A stretch of DNA of 64,000 nt. Origin: Candidatus Latescibacterota bacterium (lineage in GTDB: Bacteria; Latescibacterota; UBA2968). Both the position numbers and the translations under genes were made by a program. The notes below the pieces were generated by a model. The model was given only the letters and a program-made list of their open reading frames with translations, was not told the origin of the DNA and searched no databases. The stretch covers positions 416,001-480,000 of the forward strand of contig OZ242010.1 of assembly GCA_965204745.1 (NCBI GenBank). The letters are read 5' to 3'. Positions 37,081-56,482 of this stretch are shown here, in pieces. The first letter of the stretch is position 1, and the number at the start of each line of letters is the position of its first letter.

Positions 37081-37127
37081 TTTTCTCTGTCGGGTTTTGG
37101 GATTATTGACCGGGGACTGACCGCGCA

Positions 37128-38285: not shown

Positions 38286-38320
38286 AGTGCCTCCGCTGGG
38301 AAAGGGACGAATGACAACTC

Positions 38321-39369: not shown

Positions 39370-41220
39370 TTACGCCTCGTACATTTCGGCGATTTCTTTT
39401 GCAAAAAGCGATTCGATCTTTTTGGGCACGACCTTTTTCAATCCCCGCGTGAGGCTACCCGCTTCTTCGCTCAACTGCGTGGGCAAGACCAACACCCTTT
39501 GCGGACGCTCGTACCCGGGCAGGCCAGCCGCCGCGGCTTCTTTCAACAACTGCTGCCGAACGCGCTCGGCAATTGCGGGGTGGCGGCGCAGGGCGTCCTC
39601 GTCCTTTGTGGGCAAGTCGGGGATATCCGTTTGCAGGGCAGCCTCTTCTGCGTTCACGGTGACGACGGGCAGGGGGAACGTGCGGGTTTGGTCCCCACAG
39701 ATGAGGACGTGCTCGATCAAGGGCACCCGGGCAAAGATGCGTTCCAGCCGCTCCGGATTGACAAACTCGCCATTTTTCAACTTGAACTGCCGGCCCAAGC
39801 GTCCCTGAAAAGTCAAAAATCCGGCGTCGTCCATGCTGAACAAATCCCCCGTGCGGTACCACACCTTGCCCGCGTCGTCGGTGATGAGCACTTCCGCCGT
39901 GCGCTCGGGGTCGTCCAAATACCCGGTCATGACGTGATCGCCGTGGACCCACAATTCGCCGCTGCCCTCGCCGCTGCCGCGATAGGATTCGGTTTTCGGA
40001 TCGCCATGGGCAATTTCCTCGCCCGTCTCGGTGATGATCTTGACTTCTTGCAATGGCTGTCCGACGGTGCCGGTCTTTTGTCCACCGAGCGTATTGGCCG
40101 CGATCAGCGGGCTGCACTCGGTGACGCCATAGCCTTCGAATGAGACGATGTCGAGCACGTCTTGAAAAAAGTCGAGGGCCTCGGGATCGGCCTTTGCCGA
40201 GCCGACGATGAGCAGTTCGAGGCGCGACCCTACGCGCTGTGAGAGCCGCGCTTTAATTTGCCCGACCACCTTTTTGCCCAGCGTGGCATTGACGAGGTGA
40301 TCGATGATCGATGCCTCGCCGCGGGCAATGCGCTGTTTGGCCCGCACGGAGCGCGCGATCAATTTGCCTTTTGCCCCACCCGCTTCAATTTCTTTTCGCA
40401 CATTGCCAAATACTTTGTCCAAAATCAGCGGCACGGTCAAAAACCCGTGGGGTTCGGAATGGCGAATATCCACCAGCACGCGATCTGGCGACCGCGCGAG
40501 ATCCAGGGTCCAGCCCTTTGCCAAGGGAAAGTAAATGTTCAAAATGCCCATCGTGTGATAATCCGGCGCGGACTTGAACAACACCAACTCATCGCGCTCG
40601 CTGATCGTATCCCACACGGATTGGACATTGCCCACGAGGTTGCGGTGCGTTTGAATCACGCCCTTGGGCAATCCAGACGAGCCCGAGGTATAGACGATTT
40701 TCGATTCGTCCTCCGGGACAATGGTCACATCGGGCGGCGGCGAGGTCGCGCCTTGTTGTGCCAACTGAAAAAATGAGAGCGCGTCATCGGCTTGGCCTTC
40801 TGTGAGCACCACTTGCGGGGGATTGTTCAGTTGCTCGCGCACGCGCGCCACCTGTTCCAAACTTTTCGCATCGGCAAACAAATACGCGATGCCCGAGTGG
40901 TTGACGTTGTGGACGAGCAAATCGTCGGGCAACTTGTTGCAGAGAGGCACGGCGGTCAAACCGAGCATATCGCACGCGAGAAAGACCAGCACGGATTCCA
41001 AACCGCCATCGGTCAAAAGCCCGAGACGCTGCCCCTTTTCCAAGCCCAGTTGCGCCAGGCCCGAGGCCAAGCGGTCGCGCTGCTCTTTCACTTGCCGATA
41101 CGTCAACGGCACATAGCGCAAGCCCTTTTCGCCGGGCTGTTCGGACTGGCGCAACACGCGAACAGCCGTGCGCTCGGCATGGCGTTCAAAGCTATTGTTC
41201 AACAAATCCTTCAGTGTCAT
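39370..41220 (-). CDS. Long-chain acyl-CoA synthetase (AMP-binding)
   Basis: YTSGSSGLPKG, EGYGVTE, RTGD, KLKNGEFVNP. Confidence 0.88.
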   Translation of the reverse strand: MTLKDLLNNSFERHAERTAVRVLRQSEQPGEKGLRYVPLTYRQVKEQRDRLASGLAQLGLEKGQRLGLLTDGGLESVLVFLACDMLGLTAVPLCNKLPDDLLVHNVNHSGIAYLFADAKSLEQVARVREQLNNPPQVVLTEGQADDALSFFQLAQQGATSPPPDVTIVPEDESKIVYTSGSSGLPKGVIQTHRNLVGNVQSVWDTISERDELVLFKSAPDYHTMGILNIYFPLAKGWTLDLARSPDRVLVDIRHSEPHGFLTVPLILDKVFGNVRKEIEAGGAKGKLIARSVRAKQRIARGEASIIDHLVNATLGKKVVGQIKARLSQRVGSRLELLIVGSAKADPEALDFFQDVLDIVSFEGYGVTECSPLIAANTLGGQKTGTVGQPLQEVKIITETGEEIAHGDPKTESYRGSGEGSGELWVHGDHVMTGYLDDPERTAEVLITDDAGKVWYRTGDLFSMDDAGFLTFQGRLGRQFKLKNGEFVNPERLERIFARVPLIEHVLICGDQTRTFPLPVVTVNAEEAALQTDIPDLPTKDEDALRRHPAIAERVRQQLLKEAAAAGLPGYERPQRVLVLPTQLSEEAGSLTRGLKKVVPKKIESLFAKEIAEMYEA

Positions 41221-41250
41221 CTTCCCTCCTCTTGGACGAGTTTCATCCCA

Positions 41251-41841
41251 CTATTTTTTTTTAATATATCCCTCGGCGACCATCTGTTCAACTAATTCTC
41301 GCACGCAATCCCACAGCATCGGGGCGCCAATGGCGATGTGGCTATTGCTTTGCAACACGCGATCAGCCGCAATTCCGTGTTCTCGCCAAGCGCGCCCACA
41401 GGTGTGGCAATTGTGCAAAAAGGGTTGGATTCGGTCCATCGCCCCTGCAAATTTCGCCTCGGGCGTCTCCTTGGCTTCAAATTCCTCCCACAGCGCGCGC
41501 AATTCCCCGCCTTGTTCTTCGGGCAACAGGGCAAAAATGCGGTCCGCGGCTTTTGCCTCGCGCTCGGCCTTATCCGCCTGGCCCGCTTCGTCGTAGAGAA
41601 ACGTGTCTCCGGCATCGATCTCCACGAGGTCGTGCACCAGGGCCATTTTGATCACTTTGAGCATATCCACCCGCACGGGCGCGTATTCCGCGAGAACAAT
41701 CGCAAACATCGCAAAATGCCACGAGTGTTCCGCGTCGTTTTCCTTGCGCGTCTCATCGAGCAAATAGGTCTGCCGAAAAATCTGCTTGAGTTTATCGACC
41801 TCGAGGAGAAATGCGAGTTGTCGTTGCAAGCGGTCGGTCAT
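41251..41841 (-). CDS. HD_3-domain hydrolase
   Basis: ENDAEHSWH, VHDLVEIDAGD. Confidence 0.88.
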   Translation of the reverse strand: MTDRLQRQLAFLLEVDKLKQIFRQTYLLDETRKENDAEHSWHFAMFAIVLAEYAPVRVDMLKVIKMALVHDLVEIDAGDTFLYDEAGQADKAEREAKAADRIFALLPEEQGGELRALWEEFEAKETPEAKFAGAMDRIQPFLHNCHTCGRAWREHGIAADRVLQSNSHIAIGAPMLWDCVRELVEQMVAEGYIKKK

Positions 41842-41874
41842 TGTGGTGATTCCAAATGAAGGGAGACGTGAGAG

Positions 41875-41972
41875 GGGAGAAGTAACACCCTGTCTGAATC
41901 GCAGATTAAACGGATTACGCGGATTAGGGCACGCAGGTAGAGCAGGGCTACAAAGAGGCAAAGCATGCGCTG
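41875..41972 (+). repeat. About 100-bp direct repeat containing family B, paired with 43188-43286
   Basis: GGGAGAAGTAACACCCTGTCTGAATCGC(A/G)GATTAAACGGATTACGCGGATTAGGGCACGCAGGTAG shared by both copies. Confidence 0.85.
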
Positions 41973-42045
41973 AAGCGATTTTGTTCATGATGGCGATGGG
42001 TTGGCTGACCACTGACCGCTAACTGCTTGGGGCATGGGGTTGTCC

Positions 42046-42927
42046 CTACGGTTGTGTTTTCACTTTCAGCGCGTTGGGAACGACCTCAACTGTCGCGGGG
42101 GTCTCGCACACGGGTTCGCCGTCGGCAAAGACCCACATGGGATCATCCGCCTCAATCCGCAGGGTCTTGGTTTGCGCGACCTGCACCGCAGGATGACCAA
42201 CGTGCGCGCCAGAATACGCCCGCAACAACAGCCGCAAGACCCGCCAACGCGGCACATCGGACACCCGGCACACATCCAGCACGCCATCATCTAACACGGC
42301 ACTCGGTGCAACTTTGATCCCGCTCCCGTAAAAAGGCGTGTTCGCCGTTGCCGCCAGCAGAACGCGCCCGTCCAAAACGCCAAAATCTCCTGTGAGACGC
42401 ACCAGCGGAGATCGATATTGGCCCAGCGTTTGCAAAATTGCCAGCCCATAAGCCATCGTCCCACCCAATCGCAACGCCTGATCGCGCACCCGTCGCGCCA
42501 CTGCGGTATCGAATCCCAAACTCGCAACGGTCGCAAAGAACCGGCCCCCGATTTTCCCCAGATCCATCGCCCGCACCCGGCCGTGCATCAGCGCATTGAC
42601 AACGCCGTTCACATCCTTGGGCAATCCCAATGCCCGCGCCAAATCATTCCCGCGACCACATGGCACAATGCCCAAAACCGCGCCTGAATGCGCGAGGCCA
42701 TTGATCACTTCGTGGATCGTGCCATCCCCACCACACGCCGCAACCCGTTGCACACCCCGCGCCAATGCTTCCCGCGTCAACCGCTCGCAATCCCCCCGCG
42801 CTTTCGACACCACCAGATCAGCCCCCACCCCGCGCTGCCGCAACTCCCCCACAACCCGCTCCCCCAAGCGCGTTGCCCGGCCGCGCCCCGAACTGGGATT
42901 TGCGATGATCGTCCAATGAGTTGGCAT
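42046..42927 (-). CDS. Diacylglycerol/lipid kinase (YegS/BmrU family)
   Basis: NPSSG, GGDGT, PCGRGND, ADGE; the stop TAG lies in a GTAG-REP. Confidence 0.9.
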   Translation of the reverse strand: MPTHWTIIANPSSGRGRATRLGERVVGELRQRGVGADLVVSKARGDCERLTREALARGVQRVAACGGDGTIHEVINGLAHSGAVLGIVPCGRGNDLARALGLPKDVNGVVNALMHGRVRAMDLGKIGGRFFATVASLGFDTAVARRVRDQALRLGGTMAYGLAILQTLGQYRSPLVRLTGDFGVLDGRVLLAATANTPFYGSGIKVAPSAVLDDGVLDVCRVSDVPRWRVLRLLLRAYSGAHVGHPAVQVAQTKTLRIEADDPMWVFADGEPVCETPATVEVVPNALKVKTQP

Positions 42928-43286
42928 GAGGCGGTAAGAGGCAAAAGGTGAGACGCAAGACGGGAGAGGCAAGAGGTGGGACGCAAGAGGCAAGAGGCAA
43001 GATGGAAGTTTAGCCACAAAAGGCACAAAAGGCACAAAAGGCACAAAAGGCACAAAAGGCACAAAAGGCACAAAAGGCACAAAAGACATAAAAGACACGA
43101 GCGGGGTACAACTGAAGATAGCCCGTTCAAAGGCGAACCGTGTGTAGGGGCGATGCCCCCGTGCTCGCCCGAAGATACAAGACGGGAGGGAGAAGTAACA
43201 CCCTGTCTGAATCGCGGATTAAACGGATTACGCGGATTAGGGCACGCAGGTAGGGCAGAGGATGCAGAGAGGCGAAGCATGTGCTG
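42928..43286 (+). repeat. Largest composite repeat
   Basis: About ten 7-mers, GAAGTTTAGC, nine CACAAAAGG-type units (43015-43095), 38-mer at 43096-43133, GTAG-REP, family B. Confidence 0.9.
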
Positions 43287-43445
43287 TATTTGCGGTGAGC
43301 ACCCGATTCTTGATTGCGTTCGGGGTCAATTGGTTTTCCTGGGTCATCATTGCTCCTCATTAACGTCGCGGGATTGAATAATCGGGTATTGGACATTCGC
43401 TTTTGTCACTGGCAACGACATAGGGGCTGAATGACACGGCGAGGA

Positions 43446-44828
43446 CTAATCCGCGCCCTTGTCTTCGCCGCGAAGGTCGGGGGAGGAGATTGGACGGACA
43501 TCCGTTTCGATGGGATTGGGGGCCGCGATCTGTTGCTCGTCAACCGTTGCGCCGAGGTCTTCCAAGCGTCGCGCTTGCACGAGGACGCGCCTCTCAAGCG
43601 AACCAATACTATCGTTGTAGCAAGTCACGGCTTTATGCAATGCCTTGCCGACCTCGCCGACATGACCGCCGTAGGTCCGAATGCGGCCGTAGAGTTCCCC
43701 TGCGGCTTGGGCGATCTTTTCGGCATTTTCCTGAACTTTGGCTTGTTGCCAGCCGATAGCGATGGTGCGGAGTAGCGCGATGAGCAGGCCGGGCGTTGCG
43801 ATGAGGACGCGGTGTTGCTTCCAAGCGTCGTCCCATACGCCCACCTTGGCACGCTCGGCAGCGTCGAGGATGGCGTCGTGTGGAACGTACATCACGGCAA
43901 AGTCGAATGACCCGGGAATCGAACTTGTGTACTCGCGGCCTGAGAGTTCCTTAGCGCGTGCGGCGAGCGCATCGGCATGGCGGCGGAAATGCGTCTGCTG
44001 TTGCCGAGGGTCTTCTGTCTCGAACGCGTCGAGGTAGGCGTCCATCGGCGCCTTGGCGTCAACCACGATCTGCTTGTCGCCGGGGATCGTAACCACCATA
44101 TCGGGGCGAAGGCGTCGTCGGTCTGTGCCTACCGAAGGTTGCTCTATGAACTCGACATGTTCGAGCATGCCCGCGGCTTCAACGACCCGGCGCAGTTGCT
44201 GTTCTCCCCAGTCTCCGCGTTCGCGCGTGGAGCGTAAGGCACGGTGCAACTGATTGGTTTCGCTACGGAGTTGGATGATTTCTCGTCGCGCTTGTTTAAC
44301 AGCTTCATGCACCTGCACATAGGCGCCCTCGCGTTCCCGTTCGATTTCGCCGACGTGCTTTTGCAATTTTTCGAGCGTTTCGCCGACGGGTTTAACGAGA
44401 TTGTCAACGGCGATCTGGCGGGACTCGAGATCTTTGTCCGACAACTCGCGCTGGCGTTTGAACGCTTCCTGTGCCTGCTTGCGAAATTCCTCGCTCGTGT
44501 CTTGCACAACCTGCGACGCGATGCCCTTGAAATGCGTGTCGAGTTGCTCCTGCGTCCGCTTCATCTCTTCTTGCCTCGTCTGATCCTCGGCACGTACCTT
44601 GGCGAGTTCTTGAGTTGTAGTCGATAGTTTCTCGCTGACTTCTGCCAAGCGTTTCTGGGCTTCATCTCGCTGGCTGGTGCGTTCTTCAAGTGCGATGCTC
44701 CGTTCGGCGAGTTGGACTTGCAGGTTCTTCAACTCGTCTGCGTCGGCCATGTTGTACTTCCGTGCGACGGTGAAGGCTATACCAAACCCGGCGAGTAGCC
44801 CTACGATGAGTGCGACAACGATCTCCAT
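43446..44828 (-). CDS. rmuC: RmuC-family protein
   Basis: N-terminal TM and coiled coil, RGDWGE, RPDM, VVDAKAP, ATP. Confidence 0.9.
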   Translation of the reverse strand: MEIVVALIVGLLAGFGIAFTVARKYNMADADELKNLQVQLAERSIALEERTSQRDEAQKRLAEVSEKLSTTTQELAKVRAEDQTRQEEMKRTQEQLDTHFKGIASQVVQDTSEEFRKQAQEAFKRQRELSDKDLESRQIAVDNLVKPVGETLEKLQKHVGEIEREREGAYVQVHEAVKQARREIIQLRSETNQLHRALRSTRERGDWGEQQLRRVVEAAGMLEHVEFIEQPSVGTDRRRLRPDMVVTIPGDKQIVVDAKAPMDAYLDAFETEDPRQQQTHFRRHADALAARAKELSGREYTSSIPGSFDFAVMYVPHDAILDAAERAKVGVWDDAWKQHRVLIATPGLLIALLRTIAIGWQQAKVQENAEKIAQAAGELYGRIRTYGGHVGEVGKALHKAVTCYNDSIGSLERRVLVQARRLEDLGATVDEQQIAAPNPIETDVRPISSPDLRGEDKGAD

Positions 44829-44984
44829 TGAGGAATCTCCTTTCTGTTGGCGTCTCGCATTTCCCCTAAGATCACTTGTTGCAACAGTCGAACTTGGGGA
44901 CTAAGACCACTTTGGGGTTACGCAAGAGCGTGAGTTGTTGAGGGGGTTGGCTCGTTCTGATTTTTTGTTTTTATGACGGCCTTC

Positions 44985-45797
44985 TTACAATTCGGGTGGC
45001 GAGTCGTGGTCTTTCATTTTTCGCTTCACCAGCCATTCGACGATTTTGGGATGGATCAGTTGTAGCCACGGGAGGGTGCGGAGTTTCCAAGGGATCACGA
45101 GTTCGCGCTTTTGTTTTTGCATGGCGGTCAAAATGGCCTCGCAACACTTCTTGACGGGAATCGCCTCTTTGGTATGGTGCTGTGAGGCCGCGCCGCGGGC
45201 CGCACCATCTTTGCCCAGCGCGCCTTGTCGCAAATTCGTGCCCTGAAGCCAGTGCGGCAAGACCGTCAAGATATGCATGTCAGGGACTTCCATTTGCAGG
45301 GCTTTCAGAAAGCCCAACACCGCGTGCTTGGACGCCGCGTACCCCGTGTGCAGGGGCACGCCGATCTTGCCTTGCACAGACGCAATGCCCACCAGCATGC
45401 CCTTGGACGCGGTCATATATGGCAATGCCGCATGCGCGCAATAGACCAAACCGAGGTAATTGGTCTCCATCAATTTGCGAAACACGCCCATATCTTCCAC
45501 CTCGTCAAACCGCGCCCACATGCTGATCCCGGCATTGGCGATCAAAAAATCGATGCGGCCAAATTCCGCTATGGCTACATCGACCAAGCGCGCGCAATCT
45601 TCCACCCGCGTGACATCGCCGGGCACGGGGACCACGCGCACGCCGCACGCCCGACATCGATCCGCTGTCTCGCCGAGCATTGCCTCGCGCCGCGCAAACA
45701 GCACCAAGTGCGCGCCGCGTTTTGCCAGTGCCAGTGCCAATGCGGCCCCCAGCCCGGAAGACGCGCCCGTAATGATTGCAACTTTATTGCGAAACAT
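44985..45797 (-). CDS. SDR oxidoreductase, DHRS7/7B-like (candidate acyl/alkyl-DHAP reductase)
   Basis: TGASSGLG, NAG, SVQGKIGVP..TGYAASKHA. Confidence 0.8.
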   Translation of the reverse strand: MFRNKVAIITGASSGLGAALALALAKRGAHLVLFARREAMLGETADRCRACGVRVVPVPGDVTRVEDCARLVDVAIAEFGRIDFLIANAGISMWARFDEVEDMGVFRKLMETNYLGLVYCAHAALPYMTASKGMLVGIASVQGKIGVPLHTGYAASKHAVLGFLKALQMEVPDMHILTVLPHWLQGTNLRQGALGKDGAARGAASQHHTKEAIPVKKCCEAILTAMQKQKRELVIPWKLRTLPWLQLIHPKIVEWLVKRKMKDHDSPPEL

Positions 45798-46110
45798 CGC
45801 GCCTTTCTATCTTAAAGGTCGTGCGCCCCAAGTGCTCGAGTGCGCGTTCAAAGCTGACGAGGCGGCGGATGAGGCTATTGTAGCGGGAATGCGTATCTCG
45901 GGGATAGCGCGCGCCGAGGGCCTCGTAGAGTGCGCGTTCAGGATGATCGGGCAAATCCGGCGCGTGGGGAATCTCCAAACCCGCGGCGCGCAACCGCGGC
46001 GCGCCAATGGCGACGAGCAAGGCTTCCACTGTGATCTCGCCGCGTTTTAATGCTTCAATACCCGATAGCACGAGATCCGCGCCGGGGAGATTTTCCGGTA
46101 CTTTGGTCAT
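45784..46110 (-). CDS. Small conserved hypothetical partner of the DUF6036 protein
   Basis: LPGADLV, LLVAIGAPRL, HSRYNSLIRRLVSFERAL; ATGA overlap with the upstream gene. Confidence 0.7.
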   Translation of the reverse strand: MTKVPENLPGADLVLSGIEALKRGEITVEALLVAIGAPRLRAAGLEIPHAPDLPDHPERALYEALGARYPRDTHSRYNSLIRRLVSFERALEHLGRTTFKIERRDVSQ

Positions 46111-46652
46111 CGCGCCTCCAGTGCGATTGTTGCTTTTTGCACCTTCTCGCGGAAGGACGCGGCGTCAATCGCGGGATAACGCACGAGATCCGGCGCAATG
46201 GCAGTGAAGAGCGCGGGCAGGCGCGTCGGGTCGATCAATCGCGCCCTGTACATCGCTTCCACATCGCGCAAATCCCGTTCATGACCGCGCTCGATTTTGG
46301 CGAGTGCCTGGGCGTAAAAGTCGTAATGAAAAAAATTGATCGGCCCATGCTGGTCGATGAATGCGCTGCGCTCTCGCCAGTTGGGAAGAGGAGGAATGAA
46401 GTCGTCGGGCGCCGCCAGTTCGACATTGATGTTCAAAGCATGCTTGGCGCGTGCGATAGCGTCGAAAACACCTGCGGGTTCCGGGGCGAGTTTGAGGTCG
46501 ATGTCCATCGTGGTCATTCGCCATCCGATCAGCACTGCCGAACTCCCGCCGACGAGATAAATCCGGCCTTCGCCTCGCGCCTCCGCGCCGAGATACCGCA
46601 TGAATTTCCGCACTTTCGCGGCATCGGTCATTTCCCGCATGGTAGTGTCCAT
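46107..46652 (-). CDS. DUF6036-family nucleotidyltransferase
   Basis: LVGGSSA, TTMDID, AKIERGHERDLRD; start may be 46640. Confidence 0.8.
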   Translation of the reverse strand: MDTTMREMTDAAKVRKFMRYLGAEARGEGRIYLVGGSSAVLIGWRMTTMDIDLKLAPEPAGVFDAIARAKHALNINVELAAPDDFIPPLPNWRERSAFIDQHGPINFFHYDFYAQALAKIERGHERDLRDVEAMYRARLIDPTRLPALFTAIAPDLVRYPAIDAASFREKVQKATIALEAR

Positions 46653-46662
46653 TCATCTATAA

Positions 46663-46833
46663 TGGAAGTTTAGCCACAAAAGGCACAAAAGGCACGAGCG
46701 GGGTACAACTGGCGACAGCCAGTTCAAAGGTGAGCGATGCGTGTAGGGGCGGTGCCTCCGTGCCCGCACAATATCAAAATCAGTAGTCAGTGGTCAGTAG
46801 TCAGTGGTCAGTGGTCAGTGGTCAGTGGTCAGT
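46663..46833 (+). repeat. Composite repeat (9-mers, 38-mer at 46693-46730, REP, TCAGT(G/A)G array)
   Basis: Same module order as 9108, 20619 and 42928. Confidence 0.85.
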
Positions 46834-47258
46834 AGGTTGTGTTGACATTTGCGAGCAAAGCAACTGGCTTGAGCGGTTTATCGAGAAAATCAAGCCCTAT
46901 CGCAGAATATGCTCTCGGTTTGAGAAACTGGAATAGTCGCTCCTTATCGGGACCTACCCCCCTAGCCCCCCTTCCTGCGAGGAAGGGGGGAACTGTGAGC
47001 GGTTTTGCGAGGAGGGGATTGATGAGGGTATTTAATCGCTTTATGCCCTCGCAAAACGCCATCAGAGCAACCAGAGCGATAAGCCATCAAAGGAGCTTTA
47101 CTCCCCTTTCCTCGTAGGAAAGGGGCCGGGGGATAGGTCCCCTCGCGCAACGCCATCAGAGCAACCTAAGCCATCAAAGGACCAAACGCCTTAAGTCAGC
47201 AAGCAACCCATTTGCTACTCTGTGCGTAACGTAAAAAAATAAAATGTCAACACGACCT
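46834..47258 (+). mobile_element. IS5-derived MITE (425 bp) with a nested family A element
   Basis: TIRs AGGTTGTGTTGACATTT / AAATGTCAACACGACCT; internal SNWLERFIEKIKPYRRICSRFEKL transposase relic; family A at 46950-47140. Confidence 0.8.
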
Positions 47259-47268
47259 TAATTCGTTT

Positions 47269-49098
47269 TCACTGTCCAAACGCGCCGTTGCCGATGGCGA
47301 AGATGTTGTTGGGGTCCATTGCCTTTTTCATCTGTTGCAGGACCGCGATGCTGTTTTCACTTTGGATTTGCGGCAAAAAGCCCCTGCGGAGTTTGCCTAT
47401 GCCGTGGTGGTGGGACAGGGAGCCGCCGCGGTCCAAAATTTCTTGGCGCAAGGCGTGCTCGATCTCGTGATAAACGCCCACGGCATCTGCAAGGCCCTGC
47501 CCGCAAAAGCCCATCGTAAAATAGATGCACACGCCCGTGTGGTAGGTCTGCGTCACGCGGTAGGCCAGATAGGGTTTGCCCGGGATGCCGTGCTTGTCGT
47601 GCAACGCGGTCAGGGTCGTTTCCACCGCGCCGATCACCTCGTGGATATTCGTCCACGGCACAGAAGTCTCAAAGGTCTCGCCCAAGATGTGAAACTGGCT
47701 GAAAAAATCGCGGATATACGCGATCCCAAACGTCAGCATATACCCGCGCTTGCCATTGCTCGCGCCGCCCGAAATCCCGCCGAATTGCTTCGCCAATTTG
47801 AAAATCGTCTTCGCCTGTTGCCGGACCTCGGCTTTGCTGCCCTCCATCACAACCGTACACGCCACCACCTGCTCGAGATCAAAGCCCTTGAGCTTGAACA
47901 GGAAAAACCGCTGAATCCCCTGCTCGACCTTCTTCAATCCGGTTGCCGCGGGCTTCAATGCCTGTCCAAAGCGAAACTCCGTGTTGTTCAGCAGGCGAAT
48001 GCTCGCGGGAATCTGTCCGGTCTGCCGCAGGGCTTTGAGATAGGCCACACCGCGTTCAAACGACGGAAACACCAGCGAGCCAAATCGCTGCGCTTCGGGC
48101 TGTTTGTGGATTTTGATCGTGGCGCGGGTGATGATCCCCAAATTGCCCTCGCTGCCAAACAAAAAGGATCGGGGTTGCACGCCTGTGGAATTGCGCGGCG
48201 TCGCGTGGCGCGTCTCGACCTCGCCGGTGGGCGTCACCAACTTGGCTTCCAGCACGATATCCTCGATATTGCCGTAGCGGTTCTTTTTCATGCCGCTGGC
48301 ATGGGTCGAAATCCACCCGCCCAGAGTCGAAAACTCCAAACTGTCCGGATCGTGCCCGGACGTGTAGCCCCGGTCATTGAGCACTCGCTCCAACTGCTTG
48401 CCGGAAATGCCCGCCTCCACGCACGCCTGCAAATTCTCCTCGTCCAACCACACCACGCGATTCATGCGCCGCATATCCACCGACGCGACCATCCGCTTTT
48501 CCGAAGGCGGAATCGCCAGCGCGCCGCTCACATTCGTCCCCCCGCCGTAGGGCACGAGCACCACATCATGCGCGTTTGCAAGGTGGATAATCTGCTGTAC
48601 ATCGGCCTCGCCCTGTGGAAACAGCACCACATCCACCAAGCGGTCCGGGAGGCGATGGTACAGAATTTGGTATACCTCATCCACGCTCAACTGCCCGTGG
48701 CTGTGCGTCAAACGCACGCGGTCGGTTAGCGAAACGCACTCCTCTGAAAGCACCTCGCGCACCGCATCTAAAAAACCCGCGTTTGCAATGGGCGCGGGCA
48801 AATCCCGGTGTTCGACCTCTTGCCCTATGTCTTCGGGGCGGATCGGCACGTCGATCACCTCTTCGACAAAGGGCAAAAAATACGGCATCTGATAGCCGCA
48901 CAGCGGGTACCGCGTGCCGGTCACATGCACGGTTCTGTCATCGTCAAATTCAAACCGCGTATCCGCATAGCCCCACTTGTGGTCGAACTGCTCGCCCTCT
49001 GCCCGATCAAAAAAATCGCCCTCCCGCGCATCAGCACGCCCCCATCGCATCAGCAAAAACACCAGCACCAACAACGCGACAAGCGTCAATTCAATCAT
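47269..49098 (-). CDS. agpS: Alkyl-dihydroxyacetonephosphate synthase-like FAD enzyme with an N-terminal membrane anchor
   Basis: PYGGGTNV, GHDPDSLEFSTLGGWISTHASGMKKNRYGNIED, RVTQTY..GVCIYF, GSLSHHHGIGKLR, all matching eukaryotic AGPS motifs. Confidence 0.85.
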   Translation of the reverse strand: MIELTLVALLVLVFLLMRWGRADAREGDFFDRAEGEQFDHKWGYADTRFEFDDDRTVHVTGTRYPLCGYQMPYFLPFVEEVIDVPIRPEDIGQEVEHRDLPAPIANAGFLDAVREVLSEECVSLTDRVRLTHSHGQLSVDEVYQILYHRLPDRLVDVVLFPQGEADVQQIIHLANAHDVVLVPYGGGTNVSGALAIPPSEKRMVASVDMRRMNRVVWLDEENLQACVEAGISGKQLERVLNDRGYTSGHDPDSLEFSTLGGWISTHASGMKKNRYGNIEDIVLEAKLVTPTGEVETRHATPRNSTGVQPRSFLFGSEGNLGIITRATIKIHKQPEAQRFGSLVFPSFERGVAYLKALRQTGQIPASIRLLNNTEFRFGQALKPAATGLKKVEQGIQRFFLFKLKGFDLEQVVACTVVMEGSKAEVRQQAKTIFKLAKQFGGISGGASNGKRGYMLTFGIAYIRDFFSQFHILGETFETSVPWTNIHEVIGAVETTLTALHDKHGIPGKPYLAYRVTQTYHTGVCIYFTMGFCGQGLADAVGVYHEIEHALRQEILDRGGSLSHHHGIGKLRRGFLPQIQSENSIAVLQQMKKAMDPNNIFAIGNGAFGQ

Positions 49099-49180
49099 TG
49101 TTTTTCTCCTCATTAAAATGACAACCGCATCCGATTTGTGAGTTCGCGTCTTTGACCTTCATCGCTCGGTTTTTCTCTCG

Positions 49181-50107
49181 TCAAATTTCGGGCGTGTTTT
49201 CATGACGTTCCGCATATTCTCTCGCTTGAATTGGGTCGTCCGCGTTCTTTTGCAATGAACGTTTGAAGAGCGCGATCTCTTTATCTATATCCCCCAAATC
49301 TTCGATATCCTCTCCGCGGGCGGCTTTGAGATGGAGGTTCAGGGCGTATTCGCAACACTGTGCGATGTATGTGATAAACTCGGTCAAATCTTCGGTTCTA
49401 TCGGCACGCGCCAACGCGCTGATGTATCGATCTCTTTCCTCAATGGGGATTAGAGCCACGGTGTATCCGTGTTTGATCAAGATCATATTCATCAAAAGCC
49501 GCGCCATGCGGCCATTCCCATCGTCGAAAGGGTGGATGCGGACAAAGCGGTAGTGAAACGCAGCAGCGATGACAATGGGATGCTCGCCCTCGGTTTCTCG
49601 CCTTCTGTACCAATCTAAGAGATCGCTCATCGCGGGTTTTACTCGGTCTGGCGGCGTAAAATAATACGTCTCATCGGTAGCGGTTCGCACATTGTTGGGC
49701 CGCGTCTTGTAGCTTCCAATGGCAATGCGTCGCTTTACGTGCTGCCCATCAGGCGTTATCGCGTCGTTTTTGTAAGGCTCTTTTAGCAATACTTTATGCA
49801 GATTGCGGATGAAAACCTCGTTGAGTGCCTCGTCTTTTTTTGCGGCTTCCTCGATGGCTTTGACCGCATCGTCGTGACCTTGGATATCCAGATGATCGCG
49901 CATGGATTTCCCGTGGGCGGTGAGGCCATGGAGAATCAGGCTTTTCGTTTCTCCGAGGGTTAGGCTGTTGCCCTCTACGGCATTGGAGTGATAATTCGAC
50001 TCGATCCTGAGCTTTTGCTCTATCCGTCTGATGACCTCGAGAGGCAATGGTCGCAAAGCGTCCAACTGCTTTTTCAACCGATCAATTTTTTCGATGGGGT
50101 TGCTCAT
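49181..50107 (-). CDS. Fic-domain protein, possibly C-terminally truncated
   Basis: SNAVEGN, HPFDDGNGRMAR. Confidence 0.88.
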   Translation of the reverse strand: MSNPIEKIDRLKKQLDALRPLPLEVIRRIEQKLRIESNYHSNAVEGNSLTLGETKSLILHGLTAHGKSMRDHLDIQGHDDAVKAIEEAAKKDEALNEVFIRNLHKVLLKEPYKNDAITPDGQHVKRRIAIGSYKTRPNNVRTATDETYYFTPPDRVKPAMSDLLDWYRRRETEGEHPIVIAAAFHYRFVRIHPFDDGNGRMARLLMNMILIKHGYTVALIPIEERDRYISALARADRTEDLTEFITYIAQCCEYALNLHLKAARGEDIEDLGDIDKEIALFKRSLQKNADDPIQAREYAERHENTPEI

Positions 50108-50135
50108 AGCTTGTCCTTTCGCTACTCGGGGGTTT

Positions 50136-52082
50136 TCAGCGTTCTTCCGGATTGAGCAGGGTGGCGATGTGGATGGCTTGGAACAGGGCCGCGGCTTCGG
50201 ATTGGATCCGCAGGGAGCGTCTTTTGGGCAACAGGGCCGTTTCCCCGAGCATGGGCGGGGAGACGCACACATCGACTCGGCCTGGGTTGATGTCGATATT
50301 GCCCTTTGGGCACTTGGGCCACAGCGCGTGCAGGCCGCGGTACGCGATAGGCACGATCACCACGTCTTGGGGCAGTTGGGCGAACACCCCGTGCTGGAGT
50401 GGAAATTGTTGAATGGCAAAGGCCGCGGTCGTCGCCATGGGGTAAATCACGCCCGGTCGATCTGCCAAGGCGTGGGCAACGCGCTGTGTGGTATGGCCCG
50501 CGGCGTGGGACCGCTCGAGCATCACGTACCCATCGACAGTCTCCAAAATCTCGTCAAATGCCTCGGAGGTCATCCCGAATTGCGTGATCTGTTTGGACCC
50601 GATCTTAATGCCCGAACGCGCCAGCCCGGTCCGCGCCAAAATCACGCACGGCTCGGGCCTGTCCCAACCCATAGCGTCCAAAAACGCGGGGGACTGCAAC
50701 ACCTCGTACAAAACCGGATGGTCGAACAAACTCTGATGCGTGGGCAAAAAGATGAGCCGCTGATTTTCCCCGGTGGCCCGCAGTGCGCGCATCACGGCTT
50801 CAAACTGCGGGTCGATCAACACATTGACCCGAATATCGAAAATCCCCAGCGTGCGATGCCCCCAATCGAGCCAGGCGCGCCACCCGGCTTCGCGGCGATG
50901 AATCGGGTCATCGCCTTTGTGCAGCAACTTCTTTTTGCGATGCCCGGTCCGAAGCGAAACCGCCATCCACTTGGCAAACCGCAGGCCGCGTTGCCATTTT
51001 GAAAACTGGGCACTGCGTCCGACATCGGGATATTCCAAAAAGCGTCCGCGTGTTGGAGTTGCGAGCAGCGGGGGCGTTTGCACGGGCGAAATGTCTTGCG
51101 ATGCGCGCTGGATTTGCGCGTTGACCGCGCGGATGAGTTGTGCGGACAGGTCGATCATATCCCGCGTCAAATAGCTGTACTCCTGCCCGTACCAATACAA
51201 CTTGGGCCGCAACTTGGTGGGGTCTTCCTGATGGGCAGATAAAAATTCGATCAACAATGCCTGGGCGCGGGCGATGTCATCGGCGATCCCCTGCAAACCG
51301 GACTCGGCAACCGCGCCGTGCAACCGCGCCAACGCCACCTCGGCATCGGCGATCACCTTCCACACGGACACCCCGAACCAGCCGAAGTTCGTCAGATAAT
51401 TGTAGCGCGTTGCCAGCAAGCCCCCGGCCGCGATCAAATTGAGGGTGCGCTGGGCGACATCTTGTAGCAAATCGCGCAACCTGCCCGTCACGCGCTCGCC
51501 ATCTGTATCGCAGACATAGACCTCGGCCCAATGCGCGTCATCGTCTAGCACCACATCCCCGAGCACCTCGGCGACTGCGCGGGCGTGCGACATCGGCACC
51601 TGCGTGATATGCACATGCGCGAGGGCCTCCTCCACGGCTTCGGGCGCGTGCAACTCCTCTTCGGCCAGTGCTTTCAAGTACAGGGATTGGTACAATTTCA
51701 AAAAATCTCGCGCATCGCCATGGCCCCGCGAGACGAATCGCGCCTTGAGTTGCAAATACATCTGCGTCCCCGCGTGGTATTGCGGCAACAAATCGGCGAC
51801 TGGGCGATACGCCTCGAGCAGCCGTTCATCGCGAATCGCGGGCAGGCCGCGAAAAATCGCATCCACAATTTGCGCGCGAAATTGCAATGCCTTCAAGTCC
51901 ATGCCCCCGCGCTGGGTTTTCGGCCAGACAGCCGGCGCGTCAAAGTCGTCAAAATAGCCATCGTGCGCGATGGCTTCGAGCATGCGCTGCACGGACTGGT
52001 CGTAAATCGCCCGCATCTGATCGGCGTCGTCGAGCAGGGTTTCGTGCAGGGGGCGAGGGTCTGATTTGTCGCGTGTCAGCAT
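50136..52082 (-). CDS. PlsC-superfamily acyltransferase with a large unrecognised N-terminal domain (candidate DHAP acyltransferase)
   Basis: FLPTHQSLFD (HxxxxD), IYPMAT, IVPIAYRG in the C-terminal third. Confidence 0.7.
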   Translation of the reverse strand: MLTRDKSDPRPLHETLLDDADQMRAIYDQSVQRMLEAIAHDGYFDDFDAPAVWPKTQRGGMDLKALQFRAQIVDAIFRGLPAIRDERLLEAYRPVADLLPQYHAGTQMYLQLKARFVSRGHGDARDFLKLYQSLYLKALAEEELHAPEAVEEALAHVHITQVPMSHARAVAEVLGDVVLDDDAHWAEVYVCDTDGERVTGRLRDLLQDVAQRTLNLIAAGGLLATRYNYLTNFGWFGVSVWKVIADAEVALARLHGAVAESGLQGIADDIARAQALLIEFLSAHQEDPTKLRPKLYWYGQEYSYLTRDMIDLSAQLIRAVNAQIQRASQDISPVQTPPLLATPTRGRFLEYPDVGRSAQFSKWQRGLRFAKWMAVSLRTGHRKKKLLHKGDDPIHRREAGWRAWLDWGHRTLGIFDIRVNVLIDPQFEAVMRALRATGENQRLIFLPTHQSLFDHPVLYEVLQSPAFLDAMGWDRPEPCVILARTGLARSGIKIGSKQITQFGMTSEAFDEILETVDGYVMLERSHAAGHTTQRVAHALADRPGVIYPMATTAAFAIQQFPLQHGVFAQLPQDVVIVPIAYRGLHALWPKCPKGNIDINPGRVDVCVSPPMLGETALLPKRRSLRIQSEAAALFQAIHIATLLNPEER

Positions 52083-52104
52083 GGCGATCAACTTTCTTTT
52101 GCGG

Positions 52105-53766
52105 TCAGCGATTCGCGCGGGTGGGCCGTTCAGGTGGCGTCGATGGCTTTTGCCCCTTCATAGCCGCGGCTGTTTTGAGCACATGGCGTTGCAGGCCGGG
52201 AATGTGGATCTCTTTGAGGTAACGGGGCCAATCGATGCGCGAGACATCGCAGTTGAAAATTTCTTGGTCCTCTGCGTCCATGTCGTTGAACAGGCGGGTC
52301 ATATTCTCGTTTTGAAACACGCAATCGAGAGACATATAAGACGTGTAAATGTCGGTGAGGGACAGGGTATTTTCCAGCGTGGCGTTCAGGATGGACAGGT
52401 GGCGTTTCTTTTTGGAAACGTCGATGAGCGGCACGCGGTCGAGTGCCCACTGCGCCATCTTGATGGGCAACTGATAGCGGTAGCGCAACTTGCGGCGGAA
52501 CTGCGGCAGGGTGGGATAGGTCCACGGCGCCACCGCGATGGGGTTGCCCTGCCGGTCACGCATGGGATTTTCCACAAAATACTCGTGGACATACTGGACG
52601 ACCTCGCCCAAGGTCACGGGATTGCGCGCGCCTGTGGTGACGTGATAAACCCGCAACTCGGATGATGCTTTGACCGCGGGCAAAACCCCGATGATCGCGT
52701 TGATGATGATATCCACGGGGATAATGTCTAAAATCGTTTCTGGGCGCGCCGGGAAATCCGTCAACCGCCCCTTGCCGTAGTGGACGATGATCGGATCCGC
52801 CACCTTGAGGCCCTCCAGCCAGCCGGGCTCGGGGTCGGACAAACTGCTTTCGATAATCGACGGGCGGACGATCACAGTCGGCAACTTGCCCCGCATTTTG
52901 GCGATTATCTGCTCGCCCATGGCTTTGGTAAAAGAATAACTGTCGTGCCAGCCCAATTCGCGGCCGCGCTGCATGCCCCGCGCCACCATGTGGTCGCGCA
53001 CCCAGCGTTGGCGCAGGGCCTCGAGTTGGTGTTCGCGCCTGTGGGCGGTCACGCGCTTGCCCCGGTCCTGTTTGTCGAGCAAGCGCGTAAATTCGGCGAA
53101 CCGCTCGGGCCGCCGAGACGCGGCCTCGGTCTCTTGGCTATACGCCAAAATGCTTTCGATCTCCGCATCCAACTCGTAGTTGAGCGCACGCCCATCGCCC
53201 ATCAGGTGCGCCACGGTTTGATCGGGTATGGGCGCGTCTTCGGAAATGATCCCCTTTTGCCTGCCGTTGACGTAGGCGGTCGAAACGTGGACGAGCACCG
53301 CGTCGCTGCACGCCTTGGCAAACTCGACGATCCGCATCGCGCCCAGGGTGTTTTGCGTCAGCGCGAAATCCAGCGGCTCGTCGAACACCACTGTGGCCGC
53401 GCTGTTGATCACGATATCGACTTCGCGGGTCAACCGTGCGTATGTTTCCGCGTCCATGCCCAAGCGGTCTTTTGACAAATCGCCCGGCACAGCCACGAGT
53501 TTTTCGCGCATCACCGCGTTGAACCGATCCCCGAGTTCGGCGCGCAATCGCGCAAACGCATTGGATTGCAACACCTCGCGGTCGAGGCGATCCGCCACGC
53601 TGATCGGCTTGCCCGCCCCTCGGCTTCGCGGGCGCACCATCAGATAGACGCGCCCCACATCCGGCGCGTGGCGGAGAATTTTTTCCACCGTGCCCTTGCC
53701 CAAAAAACCCGTTGCACCCGTGACGAACAGCACCTTGCGGCTCAAAAATGGAATGACGACGCTCAT
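52105..53766 (-). CDS. Alcohol-forming fatty acyl-CoA reductase (NAD_binding_4 plus Sterile domain)
   Basis: TGATGFLGK, HVSTAYV, YSFTKAMGE, RPSIIES, DIIPVD, FNCDVSRIDW. Confidence 0.88.
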   Translation of the reverse strand: MSVVIPFLSRKVLFVTGATGFLGKGTVEKILRHAPDVGRVYLMVRPRSRGAGKPISVADRLDREVLQSNAFARLRAELGDRFNAVMREKLVAVPGDLSKDRLGMDAETYARLTREVDIVINSAATVVFDEPLDFALTQNTLGAMRIVEFAKACSDAVLVHVSTAYVNGRQKGIISEDAPIPDQTVAHLMGDGRALNYELDAEIESILAYSQETEAASRRPERFAEFTRLLDKQDRGKRVTAHRREHQLEALRQRWVRDHMVARGMQRGRELGWHDSYSFTKAMGEQIIAKMRGKLPTVIVRPSIIESSLSDPEPGWLEGLKVADPIIVHYGKGRLTDFPARPETILDIIPVDIIINAIIGVLPAVKASSELRVYHVTTGARNPVTLGEVVQYVHEYFVENPMRDRQGNPIAVAPWTYPTLPQFRRKLRYRYQLPIKMAQWALDRVPLIDVSKKKRHLSILNATLENTLSLTDIYTSYMSLDCVFQNENMTRLFNDMDAEDQEIFNCDVSRIDWPRYLKEIHIPGLQRHVLKTAAAMKGQKPSTPPERPTRANR

Positions 53767-56432: not shown

Positions 56433-56482
56433 AAAGCCCCGCTGAACTTGGCAAGGCGCAATGCTTTGCAGTAAAGCGGGGC
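56410..56482 (+). promoter_or_regulatory. Predicted -1 programmed ribosomal frameshift signal
   Basis: GGGA, heptamer T TTT TTT (56423-56429), stop TGA, 6-nt spacer, hairpin 56436-56482. Confidence 0.65.

Follow-up and report, generated by a model that had tools for sequence, protein, structure and literature searches.

A bacterium of the Latescibacterota appears, from its gene content, to carry an animal-style four-gene ether-lipid route interrupted by mobile genes. The four genes, which encode a fatty acyl-CoA reductase (FAR), a 651-aa HX4D acyltransferase, an alkyl-dihydroxyacetonephosphate synthase (AGPS) and a classical SDR, probably constitute an operon that makes 1-O-alkyl-glycerol-3-phosphate by the DHAP route, in a genome where it took up insertions. 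This reading starts from synteny, the identity of the domains, the assignment to AGPS and the acyltransferase fold (as an AF2 model), which are directly established. The peroxisomal ether-lipid route of animals uses FAR1, GNPAT, AGPS and DHRS7B/PexRAP, and the chemistry proposed here runs through the same four steps; unlike the animal route, the bacterial one would involve no organelle, its AGPS bears an N-terminal hydrophobic segment and its acyltransferase comes from another, unnamed family.

Bacterial AGPS operons are already known from Myxococcus (PMC13012113, which cites Lorenzen et al. 2014), and agps hits in Latescibacterota have been published. Homologues of agps were reported in 67 of 92 Black Sea Latescibacterota MAGs (PMC11868695) and in sponge Latescibacterota MAGs (bioRxiv 10.64898/2026.06.23.733905). 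Both reports deal with the same phylum and the same gene, given in their agps passages as BLAST hit counts only: the Latescibacter and AGPS passages of the former name no operon, acyltransferase or reductase, and the main text of the latter contains neither GNPAT nor fatty acyl-CoA reductase (0 occurrences each). In the case of M. xanthus, the operon MXAN_1676-1675-1674 is described as encoding AGPS, the FAR-GNPAT fusion FARAT and a protein of the NAD-dependent epimerase family (PMC13012113). Like the present operon, it thus unites AGPS with an alcohol-forming FAR, an HX4D acyltransferase and an NAD(P) reductase. In contrast to it, FAR and acyltransferase are separate genes here, the acyltransferase has no detectable sequence kinship to GNPAT-type proteins, a classical SDR (adh_short) stands in place of the epimerase-family protein as reductase, and the order is FAR-acyltransferase-AGPS-SDR.

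A conserved gene order and its insertions

The window is a stretch of 64,000 nucleotides of contig OZ242010.1. On its minus strand the genes follow one another as FAR, the 651-aa HX4D protein, Fic, AGPS, MITE, DUF6036 pair, SDR, RmuC, lipid kinase, HD protein and acyl-CoA synthetase:

52105..53766, minus: FAR, alcohol-forming fatty acyl-CoA reductase, first gene of the putative operon (Pfam NAD_binding_4 5.4e-66 and Sterile 8e-15)
50136..52091, minus: 651-aa HX4D acyltransferase of an unnamed family, proposed DHAP (or G3P) sn-1 acyltransferase (predicted fold and motif)
49181..50107, minus: inserted Fic-domain gene, defence or toxin-like (Pfam Fic 8e-22; HPFDDGNGR intact)
47269..49113, minus: AGPS, alkyl-dihydroxyacetonephosphate synthase (FAD_binding_4 and FAD-oxidase_C)
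46834..47258, unstranded: MITE between AGPS and the DUF6036 pair (repeat I20)
46654..46833, unstranded: repeat block adjoining the MITE, made of short units of 9 nt and 14 nt, dispersed and in tandem (families D1, D5, D7 and D12)
46107..46652, minus: inserted DUF6036 nucleotidyltransferase-like gene (Pfam DUF6036 7.3e-09)
45784..46110, minus: orf108, 108 aa, inserted and paired with DUF6036 (overlaps of 4 nt with DUF6036 and 14 nt with the SDR start)
44985..45797, minus: classical SDR, last of the core genes and proposed acyl/alkyl-DHAP reductase (adh_short 7.4e-46)
43446..44828, minus: RmuC, between SDR and kinase, outside the pathway (Pfam RmuC 4.3e-86)
42046..42927 (ORF 42046-43098), minus: YegS/DgkB-type lipid kinase, possible accessory (DAGK_cat and YegS_C)
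41251..41841 (ORF 41251-42012), minus: HD_3 (YfbR-like) phosphohydrolase, neighbour only (Pfam HD_3 2.8e-55)
39370..41220, minus: AMP-forming acyl-CoA synthetase, neighbour only (AMP-binding 1.3e-61)

The domains named in an earlier, sequence-only reading of this DNA, together with their strand and positions, were all confirmed by Pfam and NCBIfam. That reading had also taken FAR, HX4D acyltransferase, AGPS and SDR for one unit parted by insertions, and had suggested synteny in relatives as a check. The four genes indeed form a conserved unit: in loci sampled around AGPS, 13 of 14 relatives from the order have them contiguous and identically arranged, and the Fic gene, the MITE/DUF6036 block and RmuC are therefore insertions. 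In a second set of 79 loci centred on the acyltransferase family (one of them, L029, reassigned by hand), FAR lies immediately upstream of the acyltransferase in 45, AGPS comes next after this pair in 38 of the 41 loci with room, and the SDR then follows in 34 of the 35 with room. Such a four-gene arrangement is beyond chance. Moreover, 39 of 41 genomes from the order have AGPS, and in a 61-genome sample of the phylum it was found in 24 of the 27 genomes with the acyltransferase family and in none of the 34 without it. AGPS and SDR still form an adjacent pair in two genomes (G043 and G045) where FAR and acyltransferase sit elsewhere. G018, the closest relative, has the four genes scattered over three places (0.88 Mb for FAR and acyltransferase, 0.77 Mb for AGPS and 4.72 Mb for the SDR), so clustering is not required. 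All genomes compared are uncultured MAGs.

There are three insertions, all co-oriented: Fic in the gap between acyltransferase and AGPS, the MITE with the DUF6036 pair between AGPS and SDR, and RmuC with repeat blocks behind the SDR; in relatives these sites carry other cargo or nothing. The Fic gene, which PADLOC matches to PDC-S04 (5.5e-33) and SoFic (5.5e-31), has a GC content of 0.51-0.54 versus 0.58-0.61 in its flanks, and the first 55 codons of its ORF overlap the acyltransferase in a different frame. It is missing from this site in 12 of the 14 relatives, and a DUF4276 gene takes its place in G016. The MITE noticed in the earlier reading proved real, with 425 nt and 17-nt terminal inverted repeats (94% complementary). 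Across the 5.48-Mb genome it gives 642 blastn hits, of which 47 are near-full-length copies of 81-92% identity, and the adjoining repeat block gives 956 partial ones. DUF6036 stands between AGPS and SDR in some congeners only, and orf108, which matched no family in Pfam, NCBIfam or PADLOC, travels with it in relatives. RmuC occupies the SDR/kinase position only in this genome and G016 among the 14 relatives.

FAR, AGPS, SDR and the proposed pathway

The first gene matches PDB 7eoz, 'Fatty acyl-CoA reductase', at E 6.8e-91, carries the 'Sterile' C-domain of eukaryote-type FARs and starts at M17 of its ORF, followed by VTGATGFLG. The third is a genuine AGPS by sequence comparison, in agreement with the earlier call of an alkyl-DHAP synthase with an intact HHH motif. 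It aligns with guinea-pig AGPS over residues 45-606 (PDB 4bby; E 5.3e-152, 510.9 bits), as well as with Dictyostelium AGPS (E 8.3e-88), keeps the HHH loop in register, and conserves the positions corresponding to guinea-pig R419, Y578, H300 and T309. Its N-terminus is a hydrophobic segment, MRRKTMIELTLVALLVLVFLLM. It sits with AGPS and not with D-lactate or glycolate oxidases, the next FAD-oxidase family, D-lactate dehydrogenase, reaching only E 3.9e-24. The SDR shows the motifs TGASSGLG, NAG and YAASK, and in G041 and G042, which lack AGPS, no orthologue of it was found.

Each step of the pathway is an inference drawn from homology and gene linkage. The route would start with the reduction of acyl-CoA to fatty alcohol by FAR, and the 651-aa HX4D acyltransferase would produce 1-acyl-DHAP. 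AGPS, anchored via its hydrophobic segment, would swap the acyl group for the alcohol, yielding 1-alkyl-DHAP, whose keto group would be reduced by the SDR. Finally, the sn-2 acyl chain would be added by the single PlsC-type enzyme of the genome, encoded elsewhere. Unlike in the M. xanthus comparison system, no PEDS1/CarF was found here in a search whose control was itself silent; the predicted products are therefore alkyl and not alkenyl lipids, and a stand-alone counterpart of 'every step', as formerly claimed, was an overstatement. The lipid analysis of the sponge preprint (bioRxiv 10.64898/2026.06.23.733905) reports no short-chain plasmalogens, which was counted against the operon reading and concerns alkenyl, not alkyl, lipids. 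A role of the cluster in producing free fatty alcohols or wax-type esters, with the AGPS-like flavoenzyme performing another oxidation, is very improbable: FAR and acyltransferase alone could yield wax esters and the FAD_binding_4 family is broad in function, but the AGPS match (E 5e-152) extends over 562 residues and includes an intact catalytic loop, and the AGPS-SDR pairing persists even where FAR is not adjacent.

The acyltransferase and its place in lipid synthesis

The acyltransferase gene lies 13 nt from FAR, and its product comprises a helical N-domain (about residues 1-360) and a C-domain (363-651) that, in the AF2 model (pLDDT 82.9, pTM 0.87), has the PlsC/GPAT fold. In sequence the protein matches nothing in Pfam or NCBIfam even at E 10, nor any PDB sequence; HMMER found only 62 representatives among 1.84 billion, all of its own family, with no relatives beyond, and no link was detected to GNPAT, FARAT or any named family. 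An hhalign comparison with 27 PlsC sequences was not significant (P 0.017-0.05). The motif HQSLFD occupies residues 452-457, and H452, P546/G547/Y550/T554 and P581/R585/G586, invariant in 32 homologues, align with PlsC blocks I, III and IV.

By Foldseek the best match of the model is PlsC 5kym (E 9.5e-5). The modelled C-terminal fold of 290 residues and the HX4D motif are shared with T. maritima PlsC (5kym), human GPAT1 (8e4y/8e50) and plastid GPATs (1k30, 1iuq and 8ia1), from which the protein differs in an identity of only 9-16%, no HMMER or Pfam link, and an extra helical N-domain of ~360 residues, for which no clear structural match was found. VIA gives Z-scores of 17.2 for PlsC (rmsd 3.9, 232/241 residues aligned), 12.7 for GPAT1 and 11.1-11.9 for the plastid GPATs; beyond the acyltransferase superfamily the highest row has Z 6.6, and PatA, itself an acyltransferase, has 7.2. 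A Foldseek-free search of 48,161 chains left the top four unchanged. Of the GNPAT counterpart proposed earlier, then, the common acyltransferase fold stands; a sequence link to GNPAT does not, and the best structural match is an sn-2 PlsC.

The wide margin of that match, which takes in the N-terminal two-helix region of PlsC (model 363-651 versus chain residues 1-246), could speak for a PlsC/AGPAT-like 1-alkyl-G3P acyltransferase that finishes plasmanic acid at sn-2, with acyl-DHAP coming from an unrecognised enzyme. This is unlikely: Z-scores inside one fold superfamily say nothing on positional specificity, the genome already has a canonical PlsC, no sn-1 candidate besides the present enzyme was found in it, and the FAR-before-acyltransferase gene order parallels the FAR-GNPAT domain order described for FARAT fusions such as that of M. 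xanthus (PMC13012113). A fused form was not found here, on weak evidence.

A last question is whether the acyltransferase, taken as an sn-1 enzyme, serves ether lipids alone. Its orthologues stand apart from FAR, AGPS and SDR in 32 of the 79 loci, and the family also occurs in AGPS-less genomes (G041, G042 and G048), so the enzyme is not dedicated to ether lipids. In the phylum sample, 26 of the 27 family-bearing genomes have neither PlsY nor GpsA, and each of these two is present in 28 of the other 34; the acyltransferase may therefore be the only sn-1 acyltransferase of the lineage, and may also start all of its membrane-lipid synthesis. It could then be chiefly a general sn-1 enzyme on G3P or DHAP, replacing PlsB or PlsX/PlsY, with the ether branch tapping its product and its place in the operon secondary, a reading to which we give somewhat less than an even chance. 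In keeping with it, PlsY was found in none of the 41 genomes of the order, G041-G045 have neither PlsY nor GpsA (0/5 each), and the present genome lacks PlsY and PlsX, has the acyltransferase in single copy and holds a single PF01553 protein, a PlsC-like ORF of 276 aa. On the other hand, the family-bearing genomes are mostly one class plus two outliers and hence represent few independent events, a divergent PlsB or PlsY can escape Pfam searches, and a glycerol kinase in this genome makes G3P obtainable from glycerol.

Genes downstream of the core

The sequence-only reading had extended the pathway to seven genes, with kinase, HD hydrolase and synthetase serving alkylglycerol salvage, dephosphorylation and fatty-acid activation. 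All seven are co-oriented in this genome. The lipid kinase, which scores 173.8 bits to TIGR00147 (cut-off 118.65), is found no more than 3.6 kb downstream of the SDR in half of the loci with room (15 of 30), and in four distant loci (L046, L049, L097 and L103) it comes directly after the SDR (<110 nt). However, it was not seen near the operon in loci of the order's sister family, and its proposed membership holds in part: it is possibly a loosely linked accessory. The other two additions fail, since HD protein and acyl-CoA synthetase stand beside kinase or operon in none of the 20-kb loci of the 14 relatives, nor in the 15 kb that follow the kinase in G016, and the former is of the YfbR-like 5'-deoxynucleotidase type. 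Both are chance neighbours outside the pathway, and a seven-gene route is quite improbable, with FAR, acyltransferase, AGPS and SDR as its conserved part. Another, unrelated synthetase (28% identical) precedes FAR in L102 and L105. The HD protein likely starts at M58 (41841), and the kinase likely at its own M58 (42927), because the 5' end of its ORF is a tandem 9-nt repeat.

Gene order and the conserved core

In the closed 5.48-Mb genome that contains the window, all sizeable genes between 39370 and 53814 lie on the minus strand. Pfam and NCBIfam matches give the order of transcription as fatty acyl-CoA reductase (FAR), the 651-aa protein, Fic, a FAD_binding_4/FAD-oxidase_C flavoenzyme, a DUF6036 gene with its 108-aa partner ORF (orf108), an SDR, RmuC, a lipid kinase, an HD_3 protein and an acyl-CoA synthetase. 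The main features and revised starts are the following:

start at 53766 (M17 of the ORF, after trimming), minus strand: FAR
50136..52091, minus strand: 651-aa HX4D acyltransferase, ACYLTRANSFERASE
49181-50107, minus strand: Fic, starting at M56 (50107); the upstream part of its ORF is the 3' end of the acyltransferase gene in another frame
46834-47258: MITE of 425 nt, bounded by 17-nt terminal inverted repeats and present genome-wide in 47 near-full copies
start at 42927 (M58), minus strand: YegS/DgkB-type lipid kinase; the 5' stretch of the ORF is repeat DNA
start at 41841 (M58), minus strand: HD_3 protein; the 5' stretch of the ORF is repeat DNA
minus strand: acyl-CoA synthetase with an AMP-binding domain, the last gene in the direction of transcription

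A scan for promoters and terminators gave no useful signal, with 18 terminator-like sites where 20.1 would be expected. The region is bordered by type I restriction-modification genes, with an HsdR-like helicase (ResIII, EcoEI_R_C) on one side (34702-37239, minus strand) and HsdM (N6_Mtase) and HsdS (Methylase_S) on the other (54423-57814, plus strand), all by Pfam; the HsdM gene beside FAR is retained in a related genome, G016, at 89% identity. Directly downstream of the acyl-CoA synthetase, at 37128-39352, overlapping ORFs encode an MR_MLE enolase-superfamily protein and an Ldh_2 malate/L-lactate dehydrogenase, which appear unconnected with the lipid genes.

The flavoenzyme is, on sequence comparison, an alkyl-DHAP synthase (AGPS). 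Its two domains match Pfam at 1.3e-37 and 8.6e-37, and among all PDB sequences guinea-pig AGPS (4bby) aligns across residues 45-606 with an E of 5.3e-152, followed by Dictyostelium AGPS (2uuu, 8.3e-88); the top family other than AGPS is D-lactate dehydrogenase, at 3.9e-24. The enzyme thus lies nearer to characterised AGPS than to D-lactate, glycolate or 2-hydroxyglutarate dehydrogenases, and the grouping with D-lactate or glycolate oxidases that could have undone the initial assignment did not emerge. The HHH loop described as intact in the sequence-only reading is indeed retained (SLSHHHG in the alignment with the guinea-pig enzyme), as are the residues matching R419, Y578, H300 and T309, while S527 is replaced by Thr. 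The roles of the HHH loop and of the active-site Arg and Tyr come from structural work on the guinea-pig enzyme. The N-terminus is hydrophobic and therefore suggests a membrane anchor. In the case of FAR, of the 'male sterility' type, both the NAD_binding_4 domain (222.8 bits) and the Sterile C-terminal domain (55.2 bits) score above their cut-offs, and the protein matches PDB 7eoz with an E of 6.8e-91. The acyl/alkyl-DHAP reductases DHRS7B and Ayr1 are classical SDRs, and the SDR of the window is also of the classical type (adh_short, 7.4e-46; TGxxxGxG, NAG and YxxxK motifs present), its closest PDB entries, which reach about 1e-21, being generic SDRs, among them 11-beta-HSD1. The kinase belongs to the YegS/DgkB type (DAGK_cat and YegS_C; TIGR00147 at 173.8 bits, cut-off 118.65). 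A search for the PEDS1/CarF family gave no match, but its control likewise matched in no genome, so that the blank carries no weight.

The conservation of gene order among relatives delimits which of these genes belong together. The public records of the closest relatives are Candidatus Latescibacterota MAGs, some of them carrying Gemmatimonadota-type labels. AGPS is present in 39 of the 41 genomes of the order, the other two being fragmented assemblies (91% and 82% complete). Across 14 AGPS-centred loci of 20 kb, which cover two families and six genera, FAR, acyltransferase, AGPS and SDR follow each other in this order on one strand in 13. A wider view is offered by 79 loci encoding the acyltransferase family: FAR lies directly upstream in 45 (including L029, placed by hand in this group since its matches overlap), and where the FAR-adjacent loci extend far enough, AGPS is the next gene in 38 of 41, and in 34 of 35 it is in turn followed by the SDR.

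The proposed ether-lipid pathway of seven genes is thus upheld for its four-gene core, whose synteny elsewhere had been named as decisive, and contracts for the rest. In 15 of 30 loci at most 3.6 kb separates the lipid kinase from the SDR, and in four distant loci the kinase follows the SDR directly, which makes it a plausible but optional companion with a weak claim to membership. In none of the 14 loci from relatives, on the other hand, did the HD hydrolase or the acyl-CoA synthetase appear next to the cluster, and neither turned up in the 15 kb that follow the kinase in G016. Both are rejected as members of the pathway on synteny; they are neighbours only.

The resulting operon follows the same logic as that of M. 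xanthus, where MXAN_1676-1675-1674 encode, according to PMC13012113, AGPS, a protein that fuses FAR with GNPAT (FARAT) and a member of the NAD-dependent epimerase family. In the window, however, FAR and acyltransferase are separate genes, the acyltransferase comes from a family other than that of the GNPAT part, and the putative reductase is a classical SDR instead of an epimerase-family protein. A search for longer members of the acyltransferase family found no fused or extended FAR-acyltransferase form, which is weak evidence.

In other published work, agps homologues have been reported in 67 of 92 Latescibacterota MAGs from the Black Sea (PMC11868695) and in sponge-symbiont Latescibacterota (bioRxiv 10.64898/2026.06.23.733905); the text of the latter describes the phylum as not earlier tied to ether lipids and nowhere mentions GNPAT or fatty acyl-CoA reductase. 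Nor does Latescibacterota occur in the main text of PMC13012113, and the literature searched yielded, for this phylum, no account of either the operon or the acyltransferase family, with the proviso that the supplements of the two screens and of PMC13012113 (GTDB hits for GNPAT, FAR and AGPS) could list these genomes. The agps hits in the phylum are already published. Whereas the published screens only counted agps, the operon amounts to a concrete set of four genes, ready to be cloned, for making ether lipids compatibly with oxygen in a phylum that is both widespread and uncultured. It could also help to trace which organisms produce the non-isoprenoid alkyl glycerol ethers met in the environment.

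Insertions and rearrangement of the cluster

Both the sister family and several congeners have the four-gene core uninterrupted, so that the Fic gene, the MITE/DUF6036/orf108 block and RmuC are insertions, as initially proposed; all of them share the orientation of the operon. The genes, motifs and MITE first seen in the sequence were confirmed by Pfam, NCBIfam, PDB alignment and a repeat analysis of window and genome, the MITE by its inverted ends and its copy number. Over the Fic region the G+C content falls to 0.51-0.54, compared with 0.58-0.61, and the Fic gene matches the PADLOC models SoFic/PDC-S04. The spacer between acyltransferase and AGPS, whose length stays below 400 nt in 36 of the 38 other loci, is a cargo site, holding Fic in the window and in G018, and a DUF4276 gene in G016 (L030, 11188-11796). 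The DUF6036 pair is found in only some congeners. The RmuC protein (43446-44828) matches the PADLOC 'RTasRmuC' model of DRT defence systems (1.3e-50).

In G018, the closest relative, the set is scattered over three distant pieces: FAR with the acyltransferase (0.88 Mb), Fic-AGPS-DUF6036-orf108 (0.77 Mb) and the SDR (4.72 Mb), with these coordinates:

C1:766009-767835: AGPS
C1:877996-879936: acyltransferase
C1:4716039-4716842: SDR

The breaks fall exactly at the two insertion sites, AGPS still being accompanied by Fic, DUF6036 and orf108, and the rearrangement may have come about through the insertions.

Short dispersed repeats are dense in the intergenic regions (42994-43116, 46654-46722, 41875-41945 and 43188-43258), with hundreds of partial copies across the genome. 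A 71-nt repeat occurs in two spacers, 97% identical, and a tandem 9-nt unit lengthens the kinase ORF by 57 codons.

The unnamed acyltransferase family

The 651-aa protein has no Pfam or NCBIfam match up to an E of 10, and against the PDB both the single sequence and a profile give chance matches only (E 0.4-0.7). None of its 216 homologues in the database has a Pfam domain, and nearly all are named hypothetical. A 32-member profile run against 1.84 billion representative proteins returned only 62 matches, each of them either a fragment or a full-length member of this one family. The HxxxxD motif assigned to it earlier is present as HQSLFD at 452-457; H452 is invariant in 32 sequences, and D457 is mostly Asp, with Glu in one of nine. 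When the family was aligned by hhalign with 27 PlsC sequences of the phylum, all four motif blocks were colinear, at a non-significant level (P 0.017-0.05, probability 1-3%), and in this same non-significant alignment the invariant residues H452, PG..Y...T (546-554) and P581..RG (585-586) coincide with blocks I, III and IV of PlsC. A stored ESM Atlas homologue resembles PF01553 clusters only (score 0.80), which serves as a lead only.

The AlphaFold2 model that was derived from the alignment of 32 sequences is confident (pLDDT 82.9, pTM 0.87). Its residues 363-651 superpose on T. maritima PlsC (5kym) with a Z of 17.2 and an rmsd of 3.9 Å over 232 of 241 residues, and on human GPAT1 and plastid GPATs with Z values of 12.7-12.8 and 11.1-11.9, whereas the next unrelated structures reach 6.6-8.1. 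In one of the two structural searches, 6.6 is the highest score outside the acyltransferase superfamily, with PatA, another acyltransferase, at 7.2. PlsC is also the first-ranked Foldseek match (E 9.5e-5), and a Foldseek-independent scan of 48,161 chains returned the identical top four entries. The helical N-terminal domain (about 1-360) finds no convincing structural match, its best rows being short helical stretches with Z of at most 8.1, and no GNPAT structure surfaced among the PDB matches of the model. By its predicted fold, then, the protein is a true HX4D acyltransferase, yet unrecognisable as GNPAT. The proposal that a family labelled 'hypothetical protein' in public records is the missing acyltransferase is, together with a possible class-wide swap of canonical phospholipid entry steps, the main value of the operon.

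A single branch of the acyltransferase tree (SH-aLRT 97, by a quick method and with a midpoint root only) parts FAR-adjacent from stand-alone members. That the two groups are paralogues is disfavoured by the single copy per genome searched, and they look like orthologues of two lineages. At L072 (6429-12217), from an AGPS-less lineage, the orthologue has an M81/MlrC peptidase gene on one side and an NfeD-Band 7 (SPFH) membrane pair on the other. Elsewhere in the genome of the window, a 128-aa ORF (L117, C1:2436187-2436348) matches positions 380-433 of the family profile (E 2.4e-13), which correspond to the basic linker and helix preceding the catalytic domain.

A possible entry point for all glycerolipids

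Neither PlsY nor PlsX was found in the genome of the window, and a whole-genome PF01553 search retrieved a single gene, a 276-aa PlsC-like ORF located elsewhere, leaving the 651-aa protein unmatched. PlsY is likewise found in none of the 41 genomes of the order. In an even draw of 61 genomes of the phylum, with presence tabulated by hand, the acyltransferase family occurs in 27, PlsY in 29, GpsA in 29 and AGPS in 24, distributed as follows:

Distribution of entry-step genes in the 61-genome phylum sample
Family-positive genomes (27): PlsY and GpsA together in 1 (G062); AGPS in 24
Family-negative genomes (34): PlsY in 28; GpsA in 28; AGPS in 0

The family-positive genomes lacking AGPS are G012 and G023, both incomplete, and G048 (99% complete). 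Five further family-positive genomes (G041-G045) are devoid of PlsY and GpsA, and two of them, G041 and G042, also of AGPS and of a close SDR orthologue (best SDR match, 34-35% identity). Since the genomes are related to each other, belonging essentially to a single class with two outliers, the pattern reflects a few events and not 27.

This distribution nevertheless suggests that the first acylation step of every glycerolipid has passed to the acyltransferase family. Its acyl acceptor may be DHAP, as hinted by the linkage with AGPS and SDR and by the loss of GpsA. It is conceivable, if on the doubtful side, that in one Latescibacterota class the acyl-DHAP route is the sole glycerolipid entry, the unnamed 650-aa family having replaced PlsB and PlsX/PlsY, and GpsA having been lost. 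DHAP, and not G3P, would then be acylated first, and a ketoreductase would yield both lyso-phosphatidate and its ether analogue. Such a strict dependence on DHAP, however, has to contend with the glycerol kinase present in the genome of the window, with an operon SDR that follows the distribution of AGPS and not that of the acyltransferase, and with divergent PlsB or PlsY that might evade Pfam. If the acyl-DHAP entry is real, these bacteria start all their membranes as peroxisomes start ether lipids, and the family, in place of PlsB/PlsX/PlsY and GpsA, fills a gap at the start of phospholipid synthesis in a whole bacterial class. It would also be a further bacterial precedent for the acyl-DHAP pathway, bearing on the debate over a bacterial origin of the eukaryotic one (PMC13012113).

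A last observation in the phylum sample concerns G058, in which PlsY, GpsA, AGPS and the acyltransferase family are all missing. This genome, like G079, G084, G085 and G087, encodes a long ORF (1415-1508 aa) with a PF01553 domain, and these ORFs may be ElbD-like multidomain ether-lipid enzymes.
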